DNA from: a virus
Virus record (IMG/VR): IMGVR_UViG_3300021399_000152
Span: 1-64,000 of that record
Reading direction: 5' to 3' (one strand)
Length of the DNA stretch: 64,000 nt
Made by a program: the position numbers and the translations under genes
The notes under the pieces: model-generated
What the model saw: only the letters and a program-made list of their open reading frames with translations
Told to the model about the DNA's origin: nothing
Database searches by the model: none
Part shown: in pieces, positions 15,866 through 57,900 of the stretch
Layout of the letters: every line of letters begins with the position of its first letter
Numbering within the stretch: the first letter of the stretch is position 1

Positions 15866-16047
15866 GGTTGCCATGATCAAGATAGGGAGACGTATGTACA
15901 ATACGAATGAGTTCAAATGGTTTTATTGTCCTCTGCTTAAAAAGCATAGAAAACAGTACTACCATTTCTTCTTTTGGTTCGGGAAGCATTGGTACATTTG
16001 TTGGCATAAGAAGAACCCGGTAGTAGATTGGTAATGAGGGTGATGCG

Positions 16048-16851
16048 ATGAGTTGGCGTACATGGGTTTACTTCAAACCGTTGTTTGGTGATCAGAAATA
16101 TATTGATGATTTCTATGAAAATGTACAGAAGATGCCAAATTGTGAATGTTATAATGGCGTATATGAATTTATGATAATCAATGGAAATGCTGAGCAAGCA
16201 TGCGCATATATCGCAAACGAGTTTAAAGGTGTAACATTTTATGGATATGCTGTATATGACACAACAGTTGGGGAGGATTATGCAAGAAATGTTATCTTTA
16301 ATCATAGAAATGGGCTAATATTTTATGGGGCAAAAGAGTATTCTTATGGTATGGACTACAATTTGATTAAAGATGATGTTCTTATTCGCGGTACCAAAAT
16401 GGATGAGTCTTCTATCAAGTTTCACAAAGACGAAGACCCTGACTTTAAAGCACCGCCCCCAGATAATTGTGATGAGTATGGCGGTTATTCTATTAATAAT
16501 GTTGATTGTCAGCACTGTGAATATTGGCAACCAGATAACTTTGGCTTTTGTGATAAAGTAGATAGATACACGGATGCATTGTTCAGCTGCTCTGAGAGTA
16601 AGTATCACAAAAAGGAAGCATCTGAAAAGCCTGTGCAACCAAATGAGTATCGGTTGAATGTGCAATATGATAAGAACGCTGATGCGCTGCATGTATTGTT
16701 TCCTAGCGATGGTACACGATCAATAGGTATTCCTGAAGAGCGGGATGATGGTGTCGTCGTAATGCGCAATATACCTTACCGCTATATCACAGGGGTCGTG
16801 ATCCCGAAGCTTCATGAATACATAGGAGATGAAAAGCATGATGAGCAATAA
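16048..16851 (+). CDS. hypothetical Cys-rich protein (267 aa)
   Basis: ORF. Confidence 0.55.
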   Translation: MSWRTWVYFKPLFGDQKYIDDFYENVQKMPNCECYNGVYEFMIINGNAEQACAYIANEFKGVTFYGYAVYDTTVGEDYARNVIFNHRNGLIFYGAKEYSYGMDYNLIKDDVLIRGTKMDESSIKFHKDEDPDFKAPPPDNCDEYGGYSINNVDCQHCEYWQPDNFGFCDKVDRYTDALFSCSESKYHKKEASEKPVQPNEYRLNVQYDKNADALHVLFPSDGTRSIGIPEERDDGVVVMRNIPYRYITGVVIPKLHEYIGDEKHDEQ

Positions 16852-17009
16852 ACTTCGTTGGTGTCTCAATTTTCTGCGAGCAGACCACCTCAGAAGACAT
16901 AAAAGGTGGCGCACTCGCAAGAAAAATATCAATCGATTGCATCGTATGAAAATAAAAGCTTTCAAGCGATGGGGTTGTTTCCCGTTGCCAAAGGAATGGG
17001 GATATTAAA

Positions 17010-17174
17010 ATGAATCGTGATGATCCGAAATGCTGTGGTTGCGAATATGTCCTTGATGCATTCGGCAACTATGTGGAGTGCGGAAAGACGGCTGAAGCCG
17101 GAACACATATGTTTGTTGACTGGTATTACTGGAACAATAAATGCCCAGACAAATGTCCACTCAAATACAAAGAG
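17010..17174 (+). CDS. small Cys-rich protein (54 aa)
   Basis: Sub-threshold ORF CCGCEY...C..KCPDKCP. Confidence 0.35.
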
Positions 17175-17189
17175 TGCGACTGACCCGGT

Positions 17190-17247
17190 GCTCTCGTAGC
17201 TCAGTGGTTAGAGCCAATGGTCGGCAGTTCGAATCTGCCCGAGAGCA
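17190..17247 (+). ncRNA. 'armless' tRNA-like minihelix lacking the anticodon arm
   Basis: GCTCTCG-TA-GCTC-AGTGGTTA-GAGC-caatggtc-GGCAG-TTCGAAT-CTGCC-CGAGAGC-A: perfect 7-bp acceptor, canonical D-arm and T-arm, only 8 nt where anticodon and variable arms should be. Confidence 0.45.
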
Positions 17248-17248
17248 A

Positions 17249-17400
17249 GCTCATACATCTAATGCTCAGAAAGGAGAGCATGAATCAGCACAGGGTCTGG
17301 TGACTGCCTTTTGCCGCCCGCTGTGTGCGATATCACAGTAAAGTACAAGGTTCAATTCCTTGTTGTGTTGAGGGTGTATGAGCCTTCTTTTTTTATGAGG
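17249..17400 (+). ncRNA. structured RNA element: D-arm-like and T-arm-like hairpins closed by a 10-bp long-range helix and U-tract
   Basis: GCTC-AGAAAGGA-GAGC and CAAGG-TTCAATT-CCTTG hairpins; 5' 'GCTCATACATC' pairs 3' 'GGTGTATGAGC' followed by TTCTTTTTTT. Confidence 0.35.
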
Positions 17401-17406
17401 TGAAAT

Positions 17407-17589
17407 ATGACAGATATAGAGAAGCAGATCCTTGAAAATCAGGAAACTATAACTCTGGCTTTGAGCCAATTGATGTTGCACAGTATGGACAGCAGAGACA
17501 TCAATGACATAACCATACGCAACAGACTTATAGACAATTACCACAAAACAAGAATGGTCCTTGGCAAGGACTACATTAAGAGGTGGTAA
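17407..17589 (+). CDS. hypothetical protein
   Basis: ATG after GAGGTGAAAT. Confidence 0.45.
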   Translation: MTDIEKQILENQETITLALSQLMLHSMDSRDINDITIRNRLIDNYHKTRMVLGKDYIKRW

Positions 17590-17831
17590 GTATGGTTTGC
17601 AAGGAGTGCAAAGAACTCTGCGATTACTATCTCGATGAGTTTTGGAATTGTCAGGGTGAGTCTGAGCCTTGCCCTGACTTCTTTAACCGTGATGAATTCT
17701 TTAACCGTAAGACAACGACTGTGGTTAGCTGCTTGGGTTGTCCGATGCATGACGATCTTGAAGGATGTTATGCTGATGACCATGGAGAGCACTGCGATGA
17801 GGTTGCTCAGGATTACTATGGGAGTATGTAA
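17583..17831 (+). CDS. Cys-rich small protein
   Basis: ORF. Confidence 0.45.
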   Translation: MVSMVCKECKELCDYYLDEFWNCQGESEPCPDFFNRDEFFNRKTTTVVSCLGCPMHDDLEGCYADDHGEHCDEVAQDYYGSM

Positions 17832-17832
17832 T

Positions 17833-18051
17833 ATGTATAAGAAAGATATGATCGAAGATCTGATGGCTATACAAGGAAACCATCCTGTTTTTTGCATTAC
17901 CCCCGGTAGGGACCTTTATCAAATATCATCTCTCAACATTGTCAAAGACAACGATAAAACGGTTGCAATACTCGCTTATATAAAAAGGGACGGTGAACAG
18001 GATGACGAACACAACTCAGACGAACCAGAGTACTTCGTCTTCCAAGGTTAA
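17833..18051 (+). CDS. hypothetical protein
   Basis: ATG after GGGAG. Confidence 0.4.
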   Translation: MYKKDMIEDLMAIQGNHPVFCITPGRDLYQISSLNIVKDNDKTVAILAYIKRDGEQDDEHNSDEPEYFVFQG

Positions 18052-18146
18052 TAATCTGGACGAGATGTGGCGCATCTGTCACGACTGCGCATACTGGGAG
18101 ATATGCGAGCCGCCGTATGACTGTGCTGCAACAGAGGAGATGTTGC

Positions 18147-18365
18147 GAAATGGAAAGTGACATAAGAAGACCAAACGCTGTCATCCGAAGAGCGCACAAC
18201 GATGATGGCTCAAGATATTGGGATGAGATCGAATACTCCTGCCCGGTCTGTGGTAGGTATATCGGATCTTATGGATCTGAAGTCGGCTGCAAGCATTGCA
18301 AGATCTTTTATGACTGGGGCGACAGGGAGCCTACGATCAAGGTCGTGAAAACAATTCAATGGTGA
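18147..18365 (+). CDS. zinc-ribbon protein (CPVCG...CKHC)
   Basis: ORF. Confidence 0.45.
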   Translation, partial: EMESDIRRPNAVIRRAHNDDGSRYWDEIEYSCPVCGRYIGSYGSEVGCKHCKIFYDWGDREPTIKVVKTIQW

Positions 18366-18374
18366 GGTGCACAT

Positions 18375-18521
18375 ATGGTTGAGTTTTGTCTTAGTATACT
18401 AAGTCTGATCATGGCATTGCAGTTTGGAAAGCTGAATTGCATCCTCGAAACAATTGAGGAAGATTTGAAAGAGCTGTCAGGAAAGCATATCATGCAGACC
18501 GAAAGTAAAGAGGAGTTGTAA
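18375..18521 (+). CDS. small hydrophobic peptide (48 aa)
   Basis: Sub-threshold ORF with TM segment. Confidence 0.3.
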   Translation: MVEFCLSILSLIMALQFGKLNCILETIEEDLKELSGKHIMQTESKEEL

Positions 18522-18758
18522 GCAATGGAGTGGGGATCATTTCTTGTAGGATGTTGTGCTGGTGCACTTGTTATGCTGATCATTTTCCTGCTCAGTACAA
18601 CTTGTATATTCATGAGTATTCGAAAGTGAGACGCGTTGCCTCATTGGAACAGGGCATCTCGCTAAGGGATGGCAGGCCGTTCGAGTCGGTATTGGGCGAG
18701 GCAGACCCATGCAAGTTCGATTCTTGCACGCGTCATTCGTAAAGAGGTGAATTGTTGA

Positions 18759-18971
18759 GTGGCAAAGCTTATTTTTAAACCAGTATGCAGCAACTGTGGT
18801 TATCTGCTCACTATGCCGGTAACAGTATATCAAAACTCATGCAATAAGATCATTCCTCGTACTTGCCCGTGCTGCGATGAACCATTCGATAGCGCGGAGC
18901 TGGTTGCAGAAGGATCAGTAGACGATCGAACAGGAGTGTCAGCTATCACATTTTATACAGATACAGTGTGA
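18759..18971 (+). CDS. zinc-ribbon protein (CSNCG...CPCC)
   Basis: ORF. Confidence 0.45.
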   Translation: MAKLIFKPVCSNCGYLLTMPVTVYQNSCNKIIPRTCPCCDEPFDSAELVAEGSVDDRTGVSAITFYTDTV

Positions 18972-19080
18972 GTTTTCATACAGACTACCTGTGTGTAATG
19001 TGATAGGTGATAAGTTGTAAGGGTATTTTTACAAAGCGAAATTCACATAAAAATATACAGTAAATATGTGAGGTGATTTC

Positions 19081-20078: not shown

Positions 20079-20104
20079 AAGCTTGCGCGAGCAAGCTTTA
20101 TTGA
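20079..20104 (+). terminator. palindromic hairpin (AAGCTTGC-gcga-GCAAGCTT) with short T-tract
   Basis: Perfect 8-bp stem followed by TATT; immediately upstream of tRNA-Gln. Confidence 0.35.
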
Positions 20105-20173
20105 GGTGTAGTTAAACGGCATAACAAGGGACTTTGACTCCCTCGTCGTAGGTTCGACCCCTACCACCTCAGT
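20102..20173 (+). tRNA. tRNA-Gln(UUG)
   Basis: Canonical cloverleaf: acceptor TGAGGTG/CACCTCA, D-arm GTTA-AACGGCA-TAAC, anticodon arm AGGGA-CTTTGAC-TCCCT, T-arm GTAGG-TTCGACC-CCTAC. Confidence 0.8.
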
Positions 20174-20190
20174 CTTTTTTATAAGGAGAG

Positions 20191-20403: not shown

Positions 20404-20424
20404 TTGCTGCGGAGGATGTATAAT

Positions 20425-21537
20425 ATGAGTGTGCAACTTGACAACGGAATATCTGCTGTTGCAGGAGAGAACGATATGCTGTACAGAGCAGTCATTACTA
20501 CACCAAAAGGCGAGCAGAAGTGGTTATCTGCGCCAAATATGAACGAGCTGGCCCGTCGAGCATTCGCTTACGGCATGGAGACGGGACCATCGCTCGCAAC
20601 GCCGACCTTTCAGAGCTATTCTGACAGTGTGCTCACAAGGTTTAAGGCGAACACGATCAAACAGACGACCATGATAGGGTACAGAGGGTATTGCAAGAAC
20701 TATCTGTACCCTTATTTCGGCAACATCATGATCGATTGCATCAATCCAGCAATGATCCAGAGCTACTTGAATAATGTCAAGTACCTTGCGAAGAAAACAT
20801 TGCACGAACATCTGCAATATATGATTCAGGTCTTCGATTATGCCATTGCCGAGCACTACATTGCAGAGAACCCGGCCAGAAACAAGATCATTACCATTCC
20901 TTCGAGGCGAATCACGACGAGAGATACGCTTGCAGAGGATGACATCCGTGATATTTATGAGCACTTGCCTGATCTCCGCCCAGAAGATGCGAGCATTGTT
21001 GCTTTTTATCTGTTCACAGGCATGAGGCGCGGCGAGCTCGCCGGATTGCAGAGAAAATTCATTGGGCAGGACTTTATCGACATAAAAAAAGAGGCTGTTT
21101 ATCCCGGAGGCAACGAACCATACCTCGATTACACGGGAAAAACAGCCAGCGCACTGCGTTTGGTGCCGATCATTGATATCCTGCGACCATTCATCAGCGA
21201 TTGCGATCCAGAGTACTATGTATATAGGAAGGAAAAGGATCCGCCAACGCTCGCAATGCATCGCAGAACGTGGGACCGCATCAAAAACACCATCGATATA
21301 CATGGTGCAACACCACATATCCTCCGCCACACGTTTATTACTGTGTGCAACAATGCCTGCATCGATCTGAAGACGACAAAACTGATCGTCGGACATTCAT
21401 CACAGGATATTACGCTTGGTCGGTACACTCACGGCATGAAAAGCATGCTCACGAGAGCCGCCACAGAGATCAACAATGAGTTCCTTGCAATCATTAACCC
21501 GTCCGAGCCCAAGCAGGACAACGTTTTGAGGGCTTGA
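20425..21537 (+). CDS. int: tyrosine site-specific integrase
   Basis: C-terminal catalytic signature 'HILRHTF...GHSS..ITLGRYTH'; N-terminal SAM-like domain; start at ATG 20425 after GGAGG. Confidence 0.85.
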   Translation: MSVQLDNGISAVAGENDMLYRAVITTPKGEQKWLSAPNMNELARRAFAYGMETGPSLATPTFQSYSDSVLTRFKANTIKQTTMIGYRGYCKNYLYPYFGNIMIDCINPAMIQSYLNNVKYLAKKTLHEHLQYMIQVFDYAIAEHYIAENPARNKIITIPSRRITTRDTLAEDDIRDIYEHLPDLRPEDASIVAFYLFTGMRRGELAGLQRKFIGQDFIDIKKEAVYPGGNEPYLDYTGKTASALRLVPIIDILRPFISDCDPEYYVYRKEKDPPTLAMHRRTWDRIKNTIDIHGATPHILRHTFITVCNNACIDLKTTKLIVGHSSQDITLGRYTHGMKSMLTRAATEINNEFLAIINPSEPKQDNVLRA

Positions 21538-42994: not shown

Positions 42995-45900
42995 TTAAAA
43001 ACTAAATTTACTTGTACTGAGTCCTTGCATACTGAGGTCCTTAACGAACTCGCGACCAATCCGAACAGCAAGCTCTTCGAAATCAGCCTCATTGTTGATC
43101 TGGTTCGTGTTGATGTTGATGTCGCCGACCGTAACACGGGCGCCACTTGCCAGAGAAGAGTCGTCATAAATATGACGCACAAAACTGCTGGTGTTAATCT
43201 GCTTGAAAGAGGCAACCATAGTACGCATATCCTGCATGAAGCCACTATCGAGAATGCCGCGCATGGTATTGCGGTCTTCATTATCAAGGAAGGCTTCTGG
43301 CTTGGCGGGCGTGCCGTGAACCATAGCAAGACCAGTGTACTTGACTTCGCCGCCTTCGGAGAAGGGCACTGCATTAAGTCGGTTATTGTTTGCATTTGTG
43401 CTCGTCTTGGTCGGCTTTGCTTGTTGAGCAGTTGGCACGACTCGTTTTACCGTGTAACCCTCATTATATGCTATAAGATTTAAATATTGTTGTGCTCTGG
43501 CTTGGCTGTTAAATGTCTTAACAAGTCTGCCTGTATCGCTATATACACCCCATGTAGATGTTGAATTATTGGTTGTAGTGCTTGGAGAATTTGGACTACC
43601 GGGTCCACCACCACTACCACCTGAACCACCACCGCCGCCGCTTTCGCCGCCGACGTAGTCTGCGAACTCTTCGTCATCATGATGATAAGTTGCCCAGTCT
43701 TCACGCGTTCTCAAATAATACAGATAGCTGCCACTATTAACAGCATCAAGCCATTGATAGAGCAACTCTTCTTTTTCGGTTTCTGAAGCGTTCTTGTATT
43801 GGTCGCTCTCCATCATGAATGCCTTGAAGATATCCTTCCTCGAGAGGATCTGATTAACCTGATCCCAATACGTATCAGTGATGCCAAGCATCTGCTTGTA
43901 CGTATCTTCCCAGCTCTGGACCATCTGGGTTTGAGCGTCTTCAAGACTGTGAGAGTATTCTTTTACGTTGTTCTTCAGCCACTTGAACATATCTTCCTGA
44001 TTCATCTGCATAACTTTGGCAACATCTGTTGAGAAGTTATTTGCATCTTCAAGAAGAAGCTCAAGGTCTTCGTCACCATACTGCTCGTATTTCTCAACAC
44101 CTTTGATCTGGTCGTCGAGAGATTCCTTCTGGGCGTTCGCTTCTTGCTCAGCTGTTTTCCATGCAAGCTCGTCCTCTGTTTCGGCAATCTTCTTACGAAG
44201 TTCTGCTGCATCCTTGGTACGAGTGGAGTCCATGCTGATCAGCGCGAGCTGTCTGCGATACTCGGCAAGCTCTTCATACTTCTTCGCTTCATCTTCTGCA
44301 TCCTTGCGCATCTGCAAGCGTTTGTCGATCAAGCTCTTTTCTTCTTCGAGAGCTTCGCGCTTCTTTTCGAGATCCTTTTTAATTAAATCCCACTCTTCTT
44401 GATGCCTTTGCCTGATAGCTTCAAGAATGGTATCCTGCATTTCAACGGAAGCAGAAAGCATTTCACGCTGTTTCTGGATACGGGCTTCGATCTCTTGGAC
44501 GACCAAGTCTTCAAGATCTGTACGAGCTTTACGAATTGCAGAGTTGTTCTGCTGAATCTTCAGGGTGTTAGCTGTGATCGTATTGTTTGTCTGGTCGAGC
44601 TCTTCCTCATACTTGAGAATTTGTTCATACAGTTTCTGCCAGTCATCAGAACCACGATCAACGGTCTTGAGCTGATTGCGAAGATCAACGATATTTTTGG
44701 AAAGCCGTGAAGCTTTATCTTTCTGTAAAGTGTTTTCGTATTCGATCATATTGTTCTCATTACTGAGCATACCAAGTTGATTATATTTCTGTTCTTGTAA
44801 TTGTGTCATCTTAATACGGTGATCAGCTATGGTGATACGGTTCTTCACATTCTGGAGAAGCTTATCTGTTGCAGACTTCTCTTTATTACCGCCACCGCCG
44901 CCTCCGCCTCCACCGCCGTGGTATGCGCCGGTATTATTCAGTGCGCCAGTAACTGTTGCACCTTTGAGAGCATTCAACACAGTTTCTACAGTGATCTCTT
45001 CACCGTTTTCATGAATTTTGAGAGCAAGTGTGCCGACCAATCCAGCATAGTTTGCCAGCTCTGCAAGACCAGCATCCTGCAAAGACTTAGCTACAGCTGC
45101 AACTTCACTTGCATCGATCTGACCATCAGCAAGTACTTTAAAGTTAATAAGCTGTGTGATATCTACACCATTATTTGCAGCTGATTCAAGACCCTGAATG
45201 AGACGTTGCTTAATTGTTTCGCCAACGCTATTGAGGTAACCCTCATTAGCCGCTGCTTCCATACTGTCAGCAAGCTTAGCCATTTCTTCTGCGCTCATTT
45301 TCTTGAGGTCTTGTTCATCAAGTTCTGTTGCACCAGCAATGACCTTGAGATCAGCAGATTTCAAACCTTTGCCAGCAACGCCCTTACCATTTTTGCCACG
45401 CATTTTATTTGCGGCTATTGCCATATCTCCGTATTTGTTCATTTGCTTGATCATGCTTGATGTAGTCTTCAGAGCAGAAGCTGCGTTCTTGTCTAAGCCT
45501 TCAAGGTTGTTTTTAACTTCATCGCTATAGTCGCCGAATTGTTTCATTGAATTAATGCCGCCATTACGAAGTGTGTTGAAAAGAGCATTGAATACAGTTT
45601 GGCTATCTGCACCTTCTGTATTCAGCAGTTTAAGAGCTTCAGCACCACCATCAAGACTTTGGATCCATTGCTGTAAACCAGTAGTGTCGCCAGCAAGATA
45701 GTTGTTGAATGCTGCGACATCGAACACACCAGCGTCAGCACCGCCAAGGAATGATAAAGCGCCATTATTCTGAGCCCAAGTATCGAGCTGTCCCATACGT
45801 GCAGAATACATTCCATCATAACCAAGAGCTGCATACGAAGAGGCTGCTCTTGCGCGAGCTTCGATCACATCATAATCAGCACCACTTGCAAACTTGAGCG

Positions 45901-48900
45901 AGCCATCCTCATTTGTGGCAAGCTCACGGCCTTCATGTTCGAACAGATCATAGAAGATTGCAGCGATAGCAGGATCAGAGAAGAAGTCTTTCACCGCTCC
46001 TTTGTCTTTCATCCATGCAAGGTCGGAAGATTCAAATGCAGTCTGGAATTCTTCAGCAGAGCTTGAACTGCGAAGCATAGCATAGACATCATCAATTCTT
46101 TTCTGCTTTTCTCTCGTGTCACCAAGATGGCTGGCTTCATCAACCCAGCCTGCAATATCAGCAAAAGAAAAGACGTTGTTTTGGTCGATCTTGGATTGCA
46201 AACCAGCGATCAAATCAATAAAGTCTCCGATCACTGTTCCAATTGCAGTTAATGCGTGGTCGAGAGCAGACTGTTTCGAGTTAATGTCGCTCGTTAATTG
46301 ACTTACAGTAGCACTGGTTATTTGCATAGAGTCGATCTGATCTGTAGTCCAGCCAATTGCTCCAGCTATATCCTTCATTTTCTTAGCATCCAGAGATTCG
46401 CCAGGTTTAGTCATCAGAGCTAATGCATCCAGATATTCATTGTATGTTTTAATCCTGCTCTCAACATCGCTGACGTATTTATTTCTTTGATCTTGTGTGC
46501 CATACAGTTCTGTTGCTCTGCTCATGGTTTCTTGGTCAAAATAATCTGCGTTGGCATTATACATATTAGTCAACAGATTACTTGCTCGTTGCTGTCTGAG
46601 TTGTCTAGCTTCCTCGGAGCTTAATGCCGTGCCTCTCTGAATCAATTGTTCAATACTAAGGCCATTGATATTAGAATATTGGCTTGCTAATGCCGCCTTG
46701 ACTTCTTGATCTTCTCTAGCATAACCACGCAAGATGGCAGTACGACCTATCATACTTGGATTAAGCAATGCATTATAATATTTCATCACATCAGGATTAT
46801 TGTAATCCTGTGATAATGAATTGAAGTAATTTATTCCGGCACTTTCCAAGAATAATTTGCCCATAGTCTGGCGCCAACCATTCTGAACAGCATTTTGATA
46901 TTCAGGGTTTGTTAACATGGTTGACATAAATTCACGCATCATGTCTGAAGACGAAGCACTTAATGCCTGGTTAATAGATGCCGCATCCATGTTGGGTTTG
47001 CTAGTCAGATATCTGTATGCCGCCAATGCCTGATCTTCATATTGATATGGGCTTACATATCCTTTGAAAGCTTCAGATGCTTGATTGGTCCGCGCTGTGC
47101 TTGGCATGAAATAATATTGCCCGTTTGTAGTGGCAAAGAAACCATCACGCGTAGAAAACATATCTTTGACAAATGGCGCATACTCTGGATACGCATTTTG
47201 GAATTCTGCAAGGCCAGAATTTAATGCGCCCCATTCTTTGTCGATGAATGACTGGTATGTTTTTAACTCATCGGCAGTCTTGCCTTTGGTATCAATCTTA
47301 AAGAAAGATGATACTAAGTCGCGATCAGCTTCAGACGTACCACCATTCATGAGTCTTGTGAATGCATTGATAGCTTCGCTTTGTTGCACAAAAGTATTTA
47401 ATGTTGTAGAGACGGCAGACGATGCGTCAGCACCGCCAGTACCAAGTTTGATATTCTCAAGCTGTTTGAAGTTTTCGGCTACCTCTTTCGAGATGATACC
47501 AAGATTTACGAGATCATCATAATGGTCAATCTGAATCTCAACATTGGCTTTCAGGCTCAGTTGGTCAAGCTCTTTCTGAATTTGAGCATAATCAACATCG
47601 GCTGCTAACACCAATGAACCATTTTCATCTCGTTCAAAATTACCGGTATCAGTATTGAACTGGAATAAACGATAAAGCACAGATGCAACATCTTTATTAC
47701 CAGCAAACTCTTTAAACTGGTCAGCATTTTTTACCCAATCAAGATTACGTAACTGTTCAATGAATGCCTGTCCATTCTGAGCTCTGTTGGCAGCACCAGC
47801 AAGATCAGCATATTGTTGTTGACGATATCTTTGAGCACCCTTGCCACTGCCGGTATTAACCCAATCATACAATTCTTCTAATGTCCACTGTTTCGATTCT
47901 GCTGTAAGATCTTTGGTGGCATTGCTCAATGAGGTGGAGAAACCATCCGCAGCGTCTCCAGCCAAAGCAACAGAAGAAGTAAAGGTGGAAATTGTGCTTT
48001 CAAGAGTTATCGAAGCTTTAGCAATGCTTTCATCAGATGTCGTCAAACCAGCAATAGCATCCTCGGTCATACCGCCAGTTCTTGCAACTTCCTGAATAGC
48101 AGAAAGTGATCTTGCATATTCAGGCAGCCTCTGTTGGAATGCAAGAGCAGCACGACTAGTTCTGTATTGTTCTGAAGTTTGATGAACTTGATTGAGATAT
48201 TGCAACTGCTCTTGTTCAGTGCCATACAAATTTTGCGCACCAGATAAAATAGAGTAATCGTATCCATAAGGATTTGCAGCATATGACTGCATCAGTTTAT
48301 TTTGAGAATATGCAGAACGAACTCTGTTTATATCCTGTTGTGTTAGCTTTTGTCCTTGCGACACTTTGGGCAATAATTCTTCTAACAGGCTTTGCCCAAT
48401 CCATTGCCCAAGAACATTTTTCAGCGGATTGTTGTTATCTAAGTTTTTCAACACAGACTGATCAGATTTAAGTAAGGCATCATAATATGATTTAACTGTT
48501 GCATTATTGTAATCTGTGTTAAGAGGATTAAAGGCATTATATCCATACGCGCCTTGAGAGAAAATATCTGCAACACTTTGCCAATCTCCATTGTTAATAA
48601 AGTCAAAGTACTGTGCATTTTTCGATAATTCATTCAAGAAATCCGAAGATGTTCTCTCTTGCAATTGAGCATGGAAATTGTCTGGTATTTTGTAAGTTTG
48701 ACTTTCTTGATCATAAAAACTGTTGAGCAAATCATATGCGTTCTTATAATCATTGACTGCATTGTATTTAACAACATTCGCATCGAGTTTCTTTTCGTAA
48801 TCATACATAGAACGATCAGCTGCCTGATATATGTATGACCCTGTTTTATCATTCCAGATTAATCCAGACTCCAAAAGCCGTGAATCAATATCTGCCCTTT

Positions 48901-51900
48901 GCTCATCAGAGACGTATGAACGAAGCATGTTAGCTTCACGCACAGCTGTATCCATATCAGATTTATCATTTAGCAACATTTGTTTGTATTTATAAGATCC
49001 AGCTTGCACATCTTCTACTTCACGCCCAAGCATTGCAGCTACAGTTTGGTAATCCTGACTCAAGGCGCCGTTATCATTTGCAATTCTCGAAAGAGCACTA
49101 TAATAGTCAGCTCTTCCAGTAATTGAATTGACTATCTTGTCAATAGACGTTTGTCTTTCTGTGCCAGATGTAGATGTCTGCAAAGTTGTATAGTTGCTAG
49201 CAAAGTCACTTGAGATAAGACCAAGATCACGCTGTGCGGTAATTTCCTTTTGCGCAATTTCATCTAACAACTGTTTTCTGATTAATTCATCTGTGCCTTG
49301 GCTGTCAACAAACTGCTGCAGATTGGGATATGTAGCTTTAACACGCGCAAGCAATCCTTCGTTGGTCTGAGCAAATGCTTGAGTTTTGGCATACGGATCC
49401 GCAGCATTAAGTATCTGTCTTGCCATATCATTGATTTGAGCATTTGTATAATAAGTATCGAATGATGCAAATGGGTTTTCTTTATTCATTGTGATGCCGC
49501 CATTGGTATAGCGTGCAAGCACATTACCATTTTCATCCATATCAAATCCGATACCGTACATGCTAAACAAGTTCCACATACTCTGAAGCATCGGGTTGTT
49601 GTTGACAATATCACTTAATGCTTTGCCTTTGTTTGACGGGAGTTTGGCATAGCTTGATAATGTCTTACTATAATTTTGGTCAATGCCAGACAGGAAAGAA
49701 CCGCTGTTTGCATAATAATTCTGCATGAATTGGGTATAGATTGCATCAAAATTATCCTCGAGCATTTGAGGTGTTGCTCCGGGAACATACTTTGCAATGA
49801 TTTCCCTTAACTTCTTATCACTACGCGCAGACTCTTTATCAACACTCATCACCTGATATTGCTCTGCTAATGCCGTTGCATACTTTGTAATGTCTTCCAT
49901 GTAAGAAGTAAACGAATTGGCACCAAGAGACTTTGATAACAAATGACGCCCAAGATCATCCTGATCGTATACACCAGTACCTTTGAGCAGATCTGCCATT
50001 ATTTCAGTGAGATCATTGTCAGCCTGCTGCAGCTTTTCAATATTATCTACTCCTCTGGTTGCCTCGGAAAATTTGTTGATGTCTTCGGCATTGCTTGCCC
50101 ATAAAGCAAATAGCTGTCTATATTCATCAACATAACCCTTTTCTTTGCTTGTTAATTTATTAGCGTCAACAAGATCACCGAGAGATTGACGAGCACGTAA
50201 ACCAGTTGAATTTGTTATAGCTGCATTAGCGATGTCATTAAAGTTCATTGCACGAAGAGCATTAAGCTGCTGCTTAACTTCTTCCGAATCTGCGGACTTG
50301 TAGAAGCTGTCAATGGCTTGCGTGATAGCTTCTTCTGTGAGCTCATCGAAACCAATCAAACCATTGTAACTATACCGGAAAGCATTCTTATCATTTGGCT
50401 TAAAAATATCATAGATAGTACGGTCGCCATTAATGAATGATTCCATATATTTTTTAATATTGGCAGAGCTTAAACCTTCATCGCTCATCTGTTTGAGTTC
50501 TTTGTCATAGTATTGCCCGATGTAGTCTTGTGCGAATCCTTTAATCATCTCATCGCTGGTAATACTCATCGTTTCAAAAACAGGGCGCAAGTTATCTGTA
50601 AATAAAGTTTCGATCTGGTCAGCTCTCAAACTTTCGATAGTTTGTTTGCTTTCTTCCAAAACATTATTTAAAACACTGCGCGGTTGTATCATTGCAGTTC
50701 TAAAACCGTTGACTATGCTGTAAATATCGTTAAGATCTGCTTCATCTCTATCGATAGGATAAAGAGCATATTCCTTGAGGATTGAAGCAAACTCTTTGTA
50801 CGATGTGATTTCTTTACCACCAACTTTAAGACCGGGTGTTTGTTTGATATATTTATCGAGCGCATCCGTAATATCATTGATATTTCCAACTTGTTCACCA
50901 TTTTCATTCCAAAAGTTGGTATCAATTGCATTACTCATACCAGATGCATTTGCGAACAATAATTCCGTTAGTCCACCTAATGTGCTAGTGCTGGAAAATA
51001 ATCTGCCTTGCAATACTTTGCTTAATTCACCATATGACCCATTGGCAAGTAGCTCTTTTTCACTATCAGTAAGAGATATACCTATGTCTTTGAAGTCTTG
51101 TTCTGTTAAAATATCTTTGTCGCTTCGATATAATGCTTCTAAATTATCATACAACTGTGGAGTTTTACCAACAAAGTTATTTAATCTTGCATACACGTAT
51201 CCATCACTAGTCAATTTCGTACCAGTATGTTCAGCAAGAAATGTTTGCTCTGTATCTTTGTATGTGTTAAGACTTTCAGTAATGCCACCCATAGCTTCTG
51301 CTAACAAGGTTGAAGCATCAGTTTTATTTTGCTGCTCGCTTGCTTCTTTTGCTCTCTTTGCAACTTCAGTGTAATATTCAAGAGAACCAGAAGCTTGGTT
51401 AACATTATCAGTAAGGCCAGAAAAATACACTGACAACGTTTGGACCGCAGTACCAAGAGCATCGGTAGCCTCTGTAGGAATGTTATCAAATGTGTCTTCA
51501 TACTTTGTCGTGATGTTATCAATATCATTGATCGCATCTTGAACCGCTTTTCTGCGTCTATCTTGTTTTTCTTTGAGTGCATTTGTATTTGTTCTTGACA
51601 GTTCACCATCTGTTTCCTTTTGTTCCGGTTTGCCAAAAAGCGCATTTCCGATTCCACCAGCTGTGCCAGCAACACCGGCAATTGCACCAATAGCAGCAAC
51701 AGTACTAATCAGACCAGCAGAAGCAGCAGCCCATTTAGTAATAGCCAAAGCATCAGGCATAGTTGCGATATCTTTAAGGAAACCAAAGACCGCTATCTTA
51801 ATTGACAATGCACCAAGAGCCGCGATTAATGCTGTGATCACAGGGATCGCCGCACTGCCAGCCTCACTCAGATTTGTGAAACCTTGGACCAAACCAGTGA

Positions 51901-54900
51901 CACCATTGAGCAAACCAGTGATCATATTATCCGAACCAAGGCTTTCAACGAAACCATCAAATGTAGACTTCAGGTTATCCATTGCAGCCTGAATTCCTTG
52001 GATTACAACTTCATACTTACTCTGAACTGTGTTATCAGAATTATCAGCAAGACCAAGATATTCATCAAGCAGCTTGCCGCCATCTTCGCCCATGCCAGCC
52101 ATAAGTGTATTGAACATGTTAGCCTGACGACCGCCAGCCATTGCATAAGTAATGTTGCCTTTCTGTAAGTCAGACAACCCTTCCCATACAGAAGCAAGTT
52201 CTCGAAGCACATCGAAAGAACTACGGAACACATCTTTGCTTGATCTTAATCTGATGCCAGCAGTTTTCAATGCGGTTTCAACATCATTGATACTTGTGGT
52301 TTCACCGGTTTCGTCCGTAATGAAACCTTCTTTTGTAACACGATTCATACGGCTGAACAATGTCTGGAAAAATGTACCAGCCTGTGCACCACCGAGCTGT
52401 GTCTTACTTGTTGCAATAGTCAGCATTGATGTCAATTCATTGTAGGAGACTCCGGCAGTCTTTGCAGAGGCCGCAGCTTTCTGCATACCTTTTTCAATTT
52501 CTTCTGCGGTCGTAGCTGCACTATCGCCAAGAGCAGTGAGTACATCCATAGCCTGATTAATATTGGACACGAGTCCAGTTTGAATAGCAGTTGTAAGACC
52601 TTTTGTTGCATCAGTGATTTTCGCACCGGTTACAGTACTAAACTTAACGATAGCATTTGTTCTTTCTTCTACCTCTTTATCTGAAAGACCCTGTCTGTAA
52701 AGAGCAGCCTTAGTTGAAGTAACATTGGAAACAGATGTTTTTAATTCTTTTGCTTGCTTGATAGAAGAAGCACGCACTTCACCCATCTCACCGGTAGACT
52801 TACCAGAAATTGCTTGAATAGTCAACATGTCAGCGTTGAACTGACGCACGAATGTAGAGGCTTCTTTAAAAGCAGTTTGCAATGCTCGCTTGCCTAACTG
52901 AAGAAGGAGATTTTCCGCAGCATTGCTGACATTCATTAACGTAGTACGAAGCAGACCACCAGTAGAACTGAATTCTTTCATGGCAGCATCTGCCTGAGTT
53001 AAGCTTGCATCGTAGTCGGCAAGAGCATTATTGGCAATACGGATGTTTTCATCAATCAAAGCAAGCTTATCTGTATCGGTTGGATCAGTGTGCTTCCTTT
53101 GATAATTTAACTGATTGATATGAGCATTTGTTCTGTCAATTGCAGTTTGCGCTGAATTGCGTTGGTGCATCCATGACAAATACTGCTGATCATTATACTG
53201 CCAACTACGGCCCACAAATGTCGGACCATACTGTAAGCGAGCCATGTTATACTGCCTCTTAGCAGCATCAAGCTGAGCCATGTTAATTTTATGCCCAATG
53301 TCACCATTAGATTTTGTTTCTAATAATTGAAGCTTTTGACGTTCCTGTTCATCCTTTATAATATCCTGCAAGATTTCACCGGATTGAACTTTGCCATTTG
53401 CATCAATATATTTTTGTAAAGCAGAAGGTATATGTTGTTTACCATCACTGCCTTTAAAAGCATCGTCTTGAAACAAAGATTTAAGCTGCGTTGCCAAAGA
53501 AGCACTTCTAAGTTCTGACATTTTCATGCTTGATGTGCCGACCCCAGTAAGAGCAGCGGTAATGTTGGCAACTTGTTCCATCTGTTTGTTGTGGAAAGCC
53601 TCAAGCTCAAGTTTTTCATTAGCATCTAAATCAATAGATTGTGAACGGGCAAGTTGTTGTTTAAGTCGTTTAACTTTCAAATATTGTGCATACTCATCTG
53701 CATAATTCTGTTTAAGAAATGCTTCACCGTTTGCCTGACCTAAATAACCCTCAATTAAACCAGTACGCAAATTAGCGCTATTTTCCAATATATCATCTTG
53801 AAGCATCTTTTCAACAGCTTGTTTTTGACTGCGTTTTATGTCAAATGAGCTTTTGATTTTGGATCCACTTGTCTGTGTCTGATATGCATCAATTGCTTTA
53901 TCAATGAGTTGACTACGATATTCTTGCAAATCAAAACTATCAAGATCACGCAGCAATGCATCATATAGATGTTGCTGATCCAGATTTAAATTTTCACCCT
54001 CGAATATTTTGGCAATGGTTGCTTTGCTTTGATCAATATCAAACTGCTTTTTAGCAACCGCAGCTTGTATGTCTGCACGAGTATCTGACGCACCAATAAT
54101 ATCATTAACTGATGCTCGCTGTGATGTTAATGCATCGCCAATATAACGTTGACGGAGCTTTTCCATGTTATCATCAGTTAGAAGAGCTTGAGCCTGCATA
54201 CTAAGTGCAAGAGCCTTGTCGTCGGAATACAGACCGCTTTTTCTGAATTCTTCGATATTACCAAGATGTCTTCCTACCATCAGCTTGTAATTATCAAGCT
54301 GCTGTTTAATGCTTGGCACCTTTTTATCTGGACCAACCTCACCGCTGATTTCTCTTGATAAAGTATCATATTCATCTTCGATGATTTCGTCAGCCTGATT
54401 GCTTAATGTTTCCTGAAATTTTTGCCGAGCTTCTTCCGCCTTCAAACCTAACTTCTGTGCAAGTCTCTGGTTTTGTTTATATCCTTTGACTCGTGCAGCA
54501 GTTTCTTGCAGTTGAGAATTGAAGTCGCTTATTTTTGCATTATATTCCTCTTCAGAAACTTCATTCTTTTTCTGCTCGTCTGTCATAGTGCCAGAAGCTT
54601 TTGCTTTAGCAATATCTTTTTGCTGTTTTATAAAAGCACTGCGTTCATCTTTTATTTTCTTACCAGTACCTTTACTTTCATCAATAAGTTTACTCAACTC
54701 ATTGTAATCATTATTCGCATTCTGTACTGCCTTCGCTAAATCATTCCATTGTTCTGTCAAACCTTTTGCTTCTTTAGAAGCGATCATTCCTTTATTCGTT
54801 CTTTCAATTTGATCAGCAAGGTCAGAATAGCTACGGATAGCGGCTTCTGGAACAGTCCTATAATAAAGATCTTTTATATCATTTGTTTCTCGCTGTAACC

Positions 54901-57900
54901 TTGCAGCTTCTGCGAAATTACCACGAGCTTCAAGAGTTGCAATTGTATCTTCGTTCCCTCGGATTGTTGCGTGATAGCTGTCCCAAATGTTACCTATTGT
55001 TTTTTCGTCCTCTGGAATTAATTTTCTTTGGATCGATTTCGACAGCTTTTGTGTTCTCTCCATCGCCTCTTTGTAATCTTCATGCGAAGTTAAAACACCG
55101 CCCAAAGCACCGGCATCAGAGATTCCTGTGCCACGCATTTGCTTGATTGCGCGTTCAGACAATTGCAATTCTTTCGCGAACTCATCGTCGATTCCGCCAC
55201 TAAACATTAATTTATTAGCAAGTAAACTAGCTCTTTGTATTGCATCAAGTCCAAGCCCGGAAGTTGAAAAATTCTGTATTGTTTGAATGACACGCGATGC
55301 TGCACGCACAGCATGCGCTATGGATTCTTGACTAGAGTCTATAGCATACATGTTTTGTCCAGCTGCAGCGTCAGCCAAAAGCACATTCAATGCACCAATA
55401 CCATTGTTTTTGAATTTATCAGGACCGCCTTGACGGAACTCGTCAGCATTTGCATACATCTGCAGCTGGAAGGCAACAGCTCGTTTTTTATCCATTGTGA
55501 AATCTTCAAGACCGCCATATGTTTTAATATCAATAATGTTGAGCTTATTATCTTTGTCCAGCATTCTGAACAGCAAGTCCTGATGACCATGCATATCAAT
55601 GGATTTTGACGAGTCACCAAGTTGCTCACCAAGTTTACTAATAGTCAGATCATCTTCGCTACCGATATATTCATTTGCTAACTCTGGGAGAATAGACAGA
55701 ATGCCCTTTTGATTTTGAGATGACATAAAAGCTTTGAATCTTCTGTATTTCTTTTGCAATCTGGATTCTGCTATATGACCACCATTGGGCTTAGAAGTAA
55801 TTTCATCAATCATTGCTTCAATACGTTCGTCATCCCAGTTAGCATCTTTGCCCAATGCCCGAAGCCTATCACTAAATGATTCAAATTTAATATTCTTTGA
55901 ACTATCTTCTGGATCTACTATTTCTTTACCATTCCAGATATCTTCAAGCAGTTGTCTCTTAACAGCTTCTGGCAAAGCTCGTGTTGCATTTGGATCATCT
56001 TTCAATTGCTTGCGCACAAGCTTTTCGCGAATATCAAAGTAATCCTGAATCATATCTTCTGCAGCATGACCAAACATAGTATGTGCATTTGTACCAGTGT
56101 CTCGCTTGGTGTCCATTTGTCCAAGCTGATTAACAACCCAGTCAACAGGGTCTTCTGCAAAATGGATCAAGCTTGTTACAGACCATCCAGTATTATCGAG
56201 TTTATCTTGTATAGCATCGTGTGGGAGATATTTAAGTTTACCAAGCGCAGAGGACGGATCAACACGTTCATACTGCCTTTTAGATGACAAAGCCATTTTG
56301 GCAATACTGTCGAAGTCAAGATGGCTTGTGCTATATCCACCGCCGAATCTTTTAAAAGCACGCATAGTACGTTTAATTGAATCGGAAGCATCATTGATGT
56401 GTTCATCTGTCAAGCCGTAATTAGGGTCAAGCAAGTTGCTAAGAACAGTTCCACCAAACTCGCCAATAATATATTCTGCTTCTTGATGGTTATGTCCATT
56501 TCTCATTTCAGCGTTAATTGCTTTCGTGCGCATATCAAGCAACGCGTCAGCATCATGTTGCGATGCAATAACATAGTCGCCGCGAAGTTCGCCAAGAAGC
56601 AAGCTTTCCATGCCAGTAATAAATTGTCTTGTTTCTTTTGTTAATGCCGATTCTGATGCCTCATTTAAATAACCTTTATCTTTAAGTCTTTGTAAATTGC
56701 CCAGAGTAGAGTTGGCAAAAGCAGTACTCCAACTTACACCATTATCCAGCTGCACACCGTTTTGTGCAGCGGTACTTCTTGCAAGTAATGAAGCTAAGAT
56801 GTTCCCAGACATATGTATCGATGGCAAATTCATTTTGAACAAATTTGTCTTTAAGAAACGACCATAGTCAATATTGTTTTTACTATCTCTGCTCTTCATT
56901 AATTGGTTGTTAAACTGGTCCCAAGACTTATAACCAAACAAAATATTTTTTGCTGTATCTGGTGTTTCAAAGAAATAACCAGTTTTTGCAGAAGTAGAGT
57001 TTGTATCGTATTGGTCAAAAGCCATGATAAGTTCTTTCGCAATATCTGGAGTGATATCCATCTGCATTGCGTTTCTGGAAATAGCATTAGGCCCGCCCAT
57101 TCGAATTGATTGCATCATAGAGGCTGTGACCCACCGTCCAACATCCAACGCATTACGCGGATCGAACTTTTTCTGGTCACCAAAAATGCTACGCTTTTGT
57201 TTCTCAAGAATACGGTCGCGCTCATCCGGGGCAAGCTGAGCTCTCGCAACAAGATCGTTATGATATGTAACAGTCTTATCCCAGATTTTATTCATCATGT
57301 CTTGCATGGTAGTGCCATCTTTGCTCATAAGATCAATGATATCTGACATATCACCGTCAAAGTCAGCACCTTGCATTAATCCGAGAAGAGGAGAGTCTTG
57401 TGCCAAATAGATAGCATTCGGGTCCATACCAAGCTGTTGGACGAGCTTCCTGAAATTAGTACTTTTAAGTGCCTTATCATTAGCTCTGTTATTTATTTTT
57501 TGTGCTGATTGGATCTGTGCCGGGAAACGGCTAATACCCAACAGTGTAGCCATACTCTTAGAGAACACAGCATCGTTCTCGCCTATACGTAATCTGGCAA
57601 TATCTGCCGAGCTTAATTCTTGCCCATTGGCATCCTTCGGCAACAGATCTTCTATAACTTGCCCAGTCTTTTTATCGATAAAACGCCTTGCTTTTCCGTT
57701 AGTAATCGGGCCAGCTTCCGGTACCCAGCCTCCATCCCACATATTCCGCGGAACTTGGTCGGCACCGATTTGCCCTCTTTTATACATTTCATTGATAGCA
57801 TCTGAGAATACATTGATTGCCCAAGGAGCCAGCATGCCACGATGCGCCTGTACTCCCTCAGGCATAGGAAGATCGCCTCGACTCATACGTTCAATCATAT

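Follow-up and report, generated by a model that had tools for sequence, protein, structure and literature searches.

A tRNA-like RNA without an anticodon arm and an adjoining structured RNA in a large tailed phage

IMG/VR virus record IMGVR_UViG_3300021399_000152 carries on its plus strand a 58-nt tRNA-like RNA that has no anticodon arm (element 1) and, starting one base after it, a 135-nt structured RNA (element 2). The window analysed here is 64,000 nt of that record; all coordinates are window positions, and the L-numbers used below (L016, L038 and so on) are labels of contigs that were retrieved for comparison. The window is part of a large tailed phage. Both RNAs have well-defined structures and are kept throughout the phage's own lineage, element 1 belongs to a recurrent class of RNAs with covarying stems, and in one member of that class the origin from a tRNA by deletion can be seen. 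We tentatively favour a role for element 1 as an RNA-processing cassette.

The two RNAs and their conservation

The features of the locus, given one per line, are these.

17010 to 17183, plus strand: upstream open reading frame (ORF) of 57 aa, Cys-rich; its stop codon is 6 nt 5' of element 1
17190 to 17247, plus strand: element 1, 58 nt, tRNA-like RNA without an anticodon arm (RF00005 match, minimum free energy (MFE) fold, conservation)
17190 to 17196, plus strand: 5' strand of the acceptor stem, GCTCTCG, 7/7 Watson-Crick pairs with 17240-17246
17197 to 17198, plus strand: equivalents of U8 and A9
17199 to 17214, plus strand: D-arm, GCTC-AGTGGTTA-GAGC, with equivalents of A14, G15 and G18/G19
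17215 to 17222, plus strand: 8-nt linker, CAATGGTC, in the place of N26, anticodon arm and variable loop, and ending in the C48 equivalent
17223 to 17239, plus strand: T-arm, GGCAG-TTCGAAT-CTGCC
17240 to 17247, plus strand: 3' strand of the acceptor stem, CGAGAGC (17240-17246), and discriminator A17247; CCA is not encoded
17249 to 17383, plus strand: element 2, 135 nt, lineage-specific structured RNA
17249 to 17260, plus strand: 5' strand, GCTCATACATCT, of the outer closing helix, 12 bp (three G-U), paired with GGGTGTATGAGC at 17372-17383; invariant in all relatives
17262 to 17281, plus strand: D-arm-like hairpin, ATGCTC-AGAAAGGA-GAGCAT, 6-bp stem
17285 to 17292, plus strand: 5' strand, TCAGCACA, of the inner helix, 8 bp, paired with TGTGTTGA at 17364-17371
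17293 to 17344, plus strand: variable interior, with two hairpins in the window phage
17345 to 17363, plus strand: T-arm-like hairpin, ACAAGG-TTCAATT-CCTTGT, 6-bp stem
17385 to 17394, plus strand: U-tract, TTCTTTTTTT, directly behind the closing helix
17407 to 17589, plus strand: downstream ORF of 60 aa, with ribosome-binding site GAGGTG at 17397-17402, directly 3' of the U-tract

Element 1 lies 6 nt 3' of an ORF and 1 nt 5' of element 2, with a likely terminator behind the pair. There is no sigma-70-like site in 16467-17190, and element 1 has no promoter-like site of its own upstream and is in a putative co-directional early operon.

Rfam RF00005 matches 17190-17247 with 49.1 bits against a gathering score of 29 (E = 1.7e-7 in the 64-kb window), and the alignment covers model positions 1-71, with 3 nt in place of the 18 positions of the anticodon arm. 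A natural reading of the linker is N26, two further bases and the variable loop 44-48. All of the bases of the elbow are kept (U8, A14, G15, G18/G19, C48, T54-Psi55-C56 and A58), the acceptor/T stack of 12 bp is intact and the base at -1 is U. The MFE fold is the three-helix structure, with z = -3.1, and the window contains the motif TAGCTCAG-N4-7-AGAGC-N6-16-GTTCGAATC a single time, whereas none of 100 shuffles has it. When held against a canonical tRNA, element 1 has the acceptor stem, the D-arm and the T-arm and passes the Rfam threshold, but with 8 nt between D- and T-stem it fails on the anticodon stem and 7-nt loop, and ARAGORN makes no tRNA call there. Because the anticodon arm has been lost element 1 cannot decode. 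The original prediction, made from the letters of the sequence, had placed the same three stems and 8-nt gap at 17190-17247 and had taken neither RNA to be decodable; the stems and the gap are all present, and element 2 is called by no tRNA or tmRNA model.

Two other identities for element 1 were tried and rejected. It is not a tmRNA, having U3-A70 instead of G3-U70, and the ARAGORN and Rfam tmRNA models call nothing. With regard to protein coding, the overlapping ORFs at 17141-17341 (plus) and 17266-17544 (minus) are predicted by no gene caller in any relative, and we also reject them because a replacement of the interior of element 2 in L016 alters the frames of both.

Element 2 folds into a structure that is both MFE and centroid, at -55 kcal/mol and z = -4.1, and none of 200 shuffles is equally stable; the MFE structure makes up 25% of the ensemble. 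The 3' strands of the T-arm, the inner helix and the closing helix are contiguous, and because they run on without a break these three predicted helices could be stacked as one 26-bp rod. The U-tract is likely to be an intrinsic terminator and to mark the 3' end of element 2. An earlier description of this RNA gave a D-like and a T-like hairpin, a closing helix of 10 bp and a U-tract; the hairpins and the U-tract stand, the closing helix has 12 bp, and the 8-bp inner helix was absent from it.

A search of Rfam at E <= 10 (16900-17700) gave no family for element 2 beyond a partial match to mascRNA, which is confined to the T-arm and scores 18.2 bits where the threshold is 42.5. Element 2 is also unmatched in INPHARED (blastn) and in the JGI metagenomes (pattern scan, 0 matches). 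It was not accepted as a riboswitch or T-box, as no model matches at E <= 10 and a single fold dominates the ensemble, nor as GOLLD or ROOL RNA, for which the window has no match at the gathering threshold or at E <= 1. A Y RNA was likewise rejected: there is no Rfam match at E <= 10, the motif GNCGAA(N0-1)G is absent, and the window holds no Ro60-sized ORF or TROVE match. A 13-codon ORF inside element 2 (ATG at 17263) is not conserved, its stop codon being lost in L016.

About 30 related contigs were retrieved through look-ups of the flanking proteins. Both RNAs are kept in all of the relatives that span the region (about 26), unchanged in 22 and with variants in four. The commonest diverged group has zero substitutions in 17152-17387, with the upstream 267-aa gene about 15% divergent and the local block about 2%; for the relatives unchanged in that interval as a whole, the flanks differ by about 2-15%. 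At a background of about 2% the chance of finding no change in 236 nt is about 0.01, which is suggestive.

The variants are informative as to structure. L057 has U for C2 in the acceptor stem, so that C-G becomes U-G. In L017 the T-stem strand CTGCC is CTGTC (G-C becomes G-U), the discriminator is G for A, and one loop of element 2 has changed. L016 and L018 have one linker change (in L016 A to G at the second position) and a C to U change in the inner helix (C-G becomes U-G). The three changes within the stems of element 1 and the inner helix of element 2 are all transitions that keep a wobble pair. The whole interior of element 2 has been exchanged in L016 and L018 for a sequence of similar length that is unrelated to it. 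L016 has the closing helix, D-like hairpin and T-arm of the window unchanged, and the inner helix too apart from the wobble change, and with this scaffold enforced its fold is 1.1 kcal/mol above its own MFE. It is speculation, prompted by a scaffold that is conserved while the interior can be swapped, that the interior carries specificity. The U-tract varies among relatives only in the number of T, and the 60-aa ORF accompanies the RNA in all of them. In L016 (11100-11130) and L057 (2395-2410) the TAG stop codon of the upstream 57-aa ORF falls inside the armless element, at positions 8-10.

The original prediction had pointed to comparison with relatives, among which an intact tRNA at this site would have marked element 1 as a simple deletion remnant. 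No relative has an intact tRNA there: the armless form is present in all close relatives, with changes that preserve the structure, and the more distant phages have no RNA at the site. The latter are contigs with homologues of the 57-aa ORF (71-85% identity), in which protein genes follow directly, with no RNA element, and nucleotide homology to them ends just before the cassette. Because relatives have no intact tRNA at the site and distant phages have no RNA there at all, the cassette is best read, from these alignments, as a lineage-specific insertion and not as the decayed copy of a tRNA that relatives still have. Within the window lineage the pattern of changes offers what we would call moderate evidence of selection.

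Searches further afield gave little. The region 16000-19000 has no nucleotide match among deposited phages (megablast), the exact D-loop pattern of element 1 has 0 matches in IMG/VR, and the 267-aa neighbour protein has no relatives in IMG/VR. The DHH protein leads in IMG/VR to L285, at 56% identity, and the L285 locus has no tRNA-like RNA or other shared gene.

A recurrent class of armless tRNA-like RNAs

The motif given above was also used as the pattern for a scan of IMG/VR. Normal tRNAs need a second gap of at least 26 nt and are hence excluded. The pattern specifies 22 bases, and chance would be expected to give about one match or fewer at any plausible collection size. As it demands an intact D-arm and T-loop the search is biased toward young, undecayed copies, and the D-stem, being fixed by the pattern, carries no covariation information. 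The scan gave 36 stretches, of which 26 are distinct, are 57-63 nt long and have at least 6 of 7 acceptor pairs and at least 4 of 5 T-stem pairs. No two of these 26, which come from unrelated viral contigs, have the same acceptor sequence.

We define the class by a 7-bp acceptor stem, a 4-bp D-stem with a GG loop, a linker of 8-10 nt (rarely 11-12) that ends in C, a 5-bp T-stem with a loop of the TTCGAAT type, and a total length of 57-63 nt. Aligned to the 26 independent members, the window element fits this definition without exception. In the alignment of the 26 with the window variants (alignment A1, 29 sequences) pairing is 98.5% in the acceptor stem and 99.3% in the T-stem, double changes are found at 11 of the 12 variable pairs, and the covariation score is 0.77, compared with 0.16 for shuffled and 0.11-0.15 for slid controls. 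Two bases that the pattern leaves free show no variation among the 29 sequences: the C that ends the linker (C48) and a D-loop G that aligns with G19. Rfam labels members of the class 'tRNA', at 40-55 bits.

Linker length is sharply peaked, with 8 nt the commonest. In a control scan the second gap was widened to 17-23 nt. The well-paired elements number 14 at a gap of 12 nt, 6 at 13 nt and 4 at 14 nt, then one or two at each gap from 15 to 19 nt, and 4, 6, 9 and 31 at gaps of 20, 21, 22 and 23 nt respectively. There are thus two discrete forms, a 'no-arm' form and a 'mini-arm' form whose stem has 3-4 bp and whose loop has 4-5 nt, and the lengths are unlike those of random deletions.

The class extends to bacterial chromosomes. 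Among 109 matches examined in GTDB genomes at least 21 are true armless elements, several of which encode CCA, as do L044 and L053 among the other members, and the copies in Streptococcus porci and Microbacterium are identical to IMG/VR matches. About half of the class members are within tRNA arrays and half are alone between co-directional genes. An all-against-all BLASTP comparison of the neighbours found no protein conserved across the class beyond lineage-specific pairs.

Some of these pairs are well diverged. In both L019 and L052 a portal gene is followed by minor capsid protein 2 (PF06152) and then by the armless element, and the identity between the flanking proteins is about 43%; the two elements have different bases over most of the acceptor and T stems but stay paired. 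Several syntenic pairs persist at flanking-protein identities of about 43-47%. In four contigs the element lies 8-13 nt behind homologous small basic Cys-rich ORFs that end CC[VQ]D[YW]GTCMCS, and L308 is grouped with them.

L037, 5239-5530: Cys-rich ORF and armless element, acceptor stem GGGCCGG
L044, 1102-1380: Cys-rich ORF and armless element, acceptor stem GGGTGGT
L054, 6034-6279: Cys-rich ORF and armless element, acceptor stem GGGTGCG
L304, 1501-1760: Cys-rich ORF and armless element, acceptor stem GGGTATG

In these four, positions 4-7 covary and G1-C72, G2-C71, G3-U70 and A73 are fixed. By the identity rules for tRNA-Ala this is the alanine identity set, and it is found also, in other settings, in L034, L035 and L051, which suggests from sequence that the members of an alanine-type subfamily are charged. 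The window element, with U3-A70, is outside this subfamily. Three further lineages have the Cys-rich ORF and lack the RNA. For the class as a whole we regard the evidence of selection as strong, as judged from the compensated differences between L019 and L052 and among the four contigs listed.

For one member the origin can be followed. L038 (6773-7223) is the same prophage as that of Streptococcus porci DSM 23759 (L090), and its armless element lies 4 nt 3' of a GOLLD RNA (263 bits). At the orthologous position Streptococcus phage Javan565 (L063, MK448806, 1561-2108) has an intact tRNA-Phe(GAA) and a second tRNA. The L038 element and this tRNA-Phe have the same acceptor stem, D-arm and discriminator, and the anticodon arm is removed in L038, where 2 nt stand in place of 16 (14 nt fewer on balance), the T-arm being if anything more regular there. 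The comparison shows, for one member and at the level of sequence, how a tRNA that loses its anticodon arm gives rise to an armless element, and that such an element can occupy the place of a tRNA flanking a large phage RNA. A relative with an intact tRNA, looked for in vain at the window locus, thus exists in the case of L038. A Vibrio chromosomal copy resembles tRNA-Arg with a deletion between two GAGC direct repeats. None of the Javan565 RNAs is annotated in its GenBank record.

The class appears to be undescribed. A search of the open-access full-text literature gave no description of phage tRNA-like RNAs that lack the anticodon arm. A concatenated query of 27 armless elements against deposited phages found only an odd tRNA region in Xanthomonas phage 10KY502B, which is unrelated.

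Gene neighbourhood and other unusual tRNA-like RNAs

Tail genes (Dit, tail proteins, lysin) occupy the minus strand between about 22.5 and 60.4 kb. Small early or accessory ORFs, with Lar-like, DUF551, DHH phosphoesterase, DUF488 and tyrosine integrase genes among them, lie on the plus strand in the first 21.5 kb. ENA and Logan assemblies supply identical or near-identical contigs, one of them, NODE_160 of ENA ERZ12302814, of 118.5 kb, and the sample names (STEW19, SHIW14, SRR8736xx), from which alone the source is read, suggest ruminant gut metagenomes. Immediately upstream of Dit is an ORF of 5803 aa (42995-60406, minus) that matches the tape-measure families phrog_4211 and phrog_28; by the usual length rule a tape measure of this size would imply a tail nearing a micrometre.

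A complete tRNA-Gln(UUG) with a U-tract behind it is found at 20101-20174 (plus), about 230 nt upstream of the tyrosine integrase gene (20404-21537, plus), in a region that is a substitution-free island among relatives and that may be attP or a phage tRNA. The possibility that element 1 is itself an attP or a remnant of integration was ruled out, because it is the complete tRNA-Gln and not element 1 that abuts the integrase gene; both acceptor strands of element 1 are present and the integrase is 3 kb away. A segment of about 280 nt (17708-17988) just downstream of the RNA cassette is missing or replaced in most relatives (the L006-L012 group) and is a mosaic junction.

There is a third tRNA-like RNA in the window, 1.4 kb downstream of element 1.

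18630 to 18736, plus strand: third tRNA-like RNA, 107 nt

It has a perfect 7-bp acceptor stem GACGCGT/ACGCGTC, a T-arm TGCAAG-TTCGATT-CTTGCA and discriminator A. Inside are a 3-bp D-stem, then an extra hairpin CATCTC-GCTAA-GGGATG, and after it an arm like that of an anticodon, whose loop TTCGAGT would give CGA (Ser). There is also a long variable arm GGG..CCC that is backed by a compensatory pair of changes in L017 (G to A and C to T). Apart from these only a 1-nt loop insertion is seen in relatives, all of which keep this RNA. A helix TGCCTC/GAGGCA was considered and dropped, being broken in L017, which compensates the GGG/CCC stem instead. ARAGORN calls tRNA-Ser at 18653-18735, a call that we regard as doubtful, and Rfam has no match.

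Several other aberrant forms were met with in the searches. In the mini-arm family from IMG/VR (L188, L189, L198, L203, L227, L232, L238, L244, L255, L262, L268 and others) the anticodon arm is a 4-bp stem with a 5-nt loop, as in CGGAATG-TAGCTCAGGTGGGAGAGC-G-CACTACAAAAGTG-AGGTC-GCAGGTTCGAATCCTGC-CTTTCCG-A; metagenome 3300045988 and the 33000290xx-33000294xx series account for many of the variants. Chromosomes of Bacteroidota (Chitinophagaceae, Flavobacterium and Cytophagales, among the GTDB contigs L064-L183) have a distinct short-linker element, GGA-TAGCTCAG..AGAGC-AACAGA(N8-10)-T-arm, for example in L100 (1682-1808) and L105 (1285-1413). Its acceptor stem is irregular or short, it is often in tandem with a second partial tRNA-like element, a conserved T-arm-containing sequence lies upstream, and in Rfam it gives weak tRNA matches of 31-41 bits and no named family. 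The region of Xanthomonas phage 10KY502B mentioned above (L310, OQ622092, 2480-3060) has intergenic tRNA-like fragments with a repeated GGTTACTTC motif, and only tRNA-Thr is annotated. One piece runs from T-arm and 3' acceptor strand directly into 5' acceptor strand and D-arm, and looks permuted or split. L028 (12856-13552) has an armless element, a tRNA-Gly and a permuted tmRNA of the two-piece type within 700 nt of phage contig.

Possible roles of the armless RNA

The reading that we prefer, at a little short of an even chance, is that the 58-mer is a tRNA-derived processing cassette for RNase P and RNase Z. Host RNase P would cut 5' of G17190, and RNase Z or an equivalent enzyme would cut after A17247, and in this way the armless tRNA, as a self-contained cassette, would detach the upstream mRNA. 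Element 2 would be freed as a small RNA of about 140-146 nt, and would be nuclease-resistant because its 5' end is buried in the 12-bp helix and its 3' end is at the terminator. The excised 58-mer would gain CCA and probably persist as a stable RNA. The determinants for RNase P, RNase Z and the CCA-adding enzyme are the acceptor/T stack, the elbow, a U at -1 and the absence of an encoded CCA, and the anticodon arm is needed only for decoding and for most synthetases. We favour processing because element 1 has kept these determinants, has no promoter-like site of its own, and is followed by a terminator behind element 2. Five roles had been suggested in the original prediction, namely substrate for CCA addition, substrate for aminoacylation, primer, processing signal and nuclease decoy. 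In favour of the processing signal are the setting in a putative operon, the single nucleotide that separates element 1 from an RNA with a terminator at its end, the homologue next to GOLLD, and the likeness to the t-elements discussed below; nothing supports a primer.

Several observations weigh against this reading. The processing model for the 58-mer is built from sequence and predicted structure, and the cleavages and the function of the released RNAs we infer by analogy. The complete identity of the RNAs among close relatives could in part reflect a recently exchanged mosaic block. In L016 and L057 a cut by RNase P at position 1 would give a non-stop mRNA for the upstream ORF. Many class members are inside ordinary tRNA arrays, where an extra processing handle is superfluous, and adjacency to a structured RNA is not a general rule of the class: 24% of the flanks of 27 elements have z < -2, compared with 13% of control windows, which is only a weak trend. 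Finally the G3-U70/A73 subfamily points to aminoacylation, and hence to a stand-alone function, in at least some members.

There are known systems with which the two RNAs may be compared, among them plant mitochondrial t-elements and the tRNA punctuation model of mitochondrial transcripts. Plant mitochondrial t-elements are non-canonical tRNA-like structures that are cut by RNase P and RNase Z and so define the 5' and 3' ends of mRNAs; once excised they are stable and gain non-templated C or CA, and some of the cuts are inside reading frames (PMC1920247). Like element 1 they are tRNA-derived and non-decoding, have a conserved T-arm and acceptor stem, and lie within polycistronic transcripts (predicted in our case), and their cuts within reading frames parallel the stop codon inside the element in L016 and L057. 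They differ in being organellar with irregular cloverleaves, whereas element 1 is phage-borne, and has lost the anticodon arm cleanly and precisely. Of the tRNA-like 3' modules mascRNA (of MALAT1) and menRNA, mascRNA is also cut by RNase P and RNase Z, receives CCA, is stable and has functions of its own. mascRNA (RF01684) is, like element 1, a tRNA-like RNA of about 58 nt, and is fused to a long non-coding RNA. It differs in being eukaryotic and in keeping a short anticodon-like stem, so that it is closer to the mini-arm form than to the armless phage form, and its model does not match element 1.

The large non-coding RNAs GOLLD and ROOL of phages and prophages typically adjoin tRNAs (PMC12286853, PMC5737381). 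The likeness is in L038, with its armless element 4 nt behind GOLLD; the difference is that the window has neither RNA, and that element 2, of no more than 135 nt, belongs to no Rfam family. The tRNA-like domain of tmRNA resembles element 1 in having an acceptor stem, a T-arm and a D-loop analogue, in having no anticodon arm and in being non-decoding. It differs in needing G3-U70 for alanylation, where the window element has U3-A70, and in having an mRNA-like tag domain; the alanine-type subfamily is nearer to tmRNA than the window element is, in G3-U70 only. Phage T4 stable RNAs C and D and the tRNA-miRNA units of murine gammaherpesvirus 68 are cases in which a tRNA or tRNA-like RNA is co-transcribed with a small RNA and separated from it by tRNA-processing enzymes. 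These units keep the anticodon arm and have no sequence relationship to the window element. For element 2 the comparison is with the bacterial Y RNAs (YrlA, Yrn1), which also have a long stem that closes the ends and D-like and T-like arms; YrlA is acted on by RNase P and by tRNA-modifying enzymes and undergoes CCA addition, and phages encode some YrlA RNAs (PMC4201824). The order and nesting of the arms differ, however, and the window has no gene of Ro60/Rsr size.

Among other explanations of element 1, we think it unlikely, though clearly to be reckoned with, that the 58-mer is a stand-alone tRNA mimic, excised and bearing CCA, which binds host or defence proteins that recognise the elbow and the acceptor end. 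Candidate targets are nucleases and transferases that act on the acceptor end or CCA, modification enzymes, EF-Tu and synthetases, for which an RNA without an anticodon loop would be a non-cleavable, non-decoding decoy or sponge. A mimic would explain why all of the tertiary-contact nucleotides are kept, with C48 and G19 invariant in 29 of 29, when a minihelix suffices for processing, and why members occur in tRNA arrays where no processing handle is needed; the discrete mini-arm form suggests selection on the molecule itself, and element 1 is in the early region beside the accessory genes (Lar-like, DUF551, DHH, DUF488). However no conserved partner gene adjoins the class members, acceptor sequences vary too widely for a single identity, and a stoichiometric decoy would need very high expression. 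The open-access literature search turned up no defence system countered by armless tRNA-likes, and we know of none that is countered by an armless tRNA decoy. It is quite improbable that the 58-mer is instead an aminoacylatable non-decoding acceptor, charged by a synthetase that reads the acceptor end alone, which would then serve non-ribosomal aminoacyl transfer, tmRNA-like entry to the ribosome or sequestration of the synthetase. The alanine identity set in the four members behind Cys-rich ORFs and in L034, L035 and L051, and the CCA encoded by L044, L053 and several bacterial copies, speak for such an acceptor. The window element, with U3-A70, is not an alanine acceptor, and its G1-C72, C2-G71 and A73 are common to several tRNA types whose synthetases, by the identity rules, also need the anticodon; nor is there an aminoacyl-transferase or SmpB-like gene among the window ORFs.

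If element 2 is considered, alone or with element 1, as a cis-acting leader or attenuator, transcription would end at the closing helix and U-tract, or these would mask the ribosome-binding site that serves the 60-aa ORF, depending on fold or ligand. The spacing would suit this, as the U-tract ends 2 nt 5' of the ribosome-binding site and 12 nt 5' of the ATG; a small hairpin GAGGGT..GCCTTC that could form instead shares bases with the 3' strand of the closing helix, and the 60-aa ORF is always beside the RNA in relatives. We nevertheless find the proposal improbable, given that no riboswitch or T-box model matches even at E <= 10, that the MFE structure, equal to the centroid and at 25% frequency, dominates with no sign of a bistable switch, and that what is swapped in L016 is the very interior in which one would expect a ligand-sensing core. 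The most sceptical account makes element 1 a neutral remnant of a phage tRNA after deletion of the anticodon arm, and element 2 an unrelated spacer that contains a terminator. Such deletion is directly visible in L038 compared with Javan565 tRNA-Phe, and the Vibrio copy with its GAGC repeats tells the same way; the motif search favours young, undecayed copies, and armless copies are probably rare relative to normal phage tRNAs. What makes this account very improbable is that the stems and tertiary-contact bases are intact over about 26 contigs while the flanks diverge, every stem change keeping its pairing, that syntenic armless elements with compensatory changes persist at 43-47% flanking-protein identity, that linker lengths are bimodal with a sharp peak, unlike random deletions, and that no relative has an intact tRNA at the site.

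There is a broader proposal, a real but distinctly uncertain one that we would not bet on, in which the armless and mini-arm RNAs together are a widespread class under selection in tailed phages and some bacteria, and are functional molecules beyond their use as processing signals. As parts of the same proposal, the alanine-type subfamily with its Cys-rich protein would imply acceptors that are charged but do not decode, and that are used in tmRNA-like entry to the ribosome or to transfer alanine non-ribosomally; members of the window type would be uncleavable mimics that titrate tRNA-binding or tRNA-targeting host factors or defence enzymes; and the window cassette would combine an armless tRNA, a 135-nt scaffold with a swappable interior and a five-arm tRNA-Ser-like RNA in a new function.

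With regard to annotation, ARAGORN and gene callers miss the armless elements and Rfam says plain 'tRNA', and they are probably misannotated or unannotated in many phage genomes. The case of GOLLD followed by an armless tRNA bears also on the maturation of large phage non-coding RNAs. The usual explanations of phage tRNAs are codon supply and the replacement of tRNAs cleaved by defences. An armless tRNA can do neither, yet armless copies recur and are conserved, and for this reason they point to a second use of the tRNA fold by phages, possibly as built-in punctuation for the processing of polycistronic RNA and the release of small RNAs, or as mimicry of the tRNA body.

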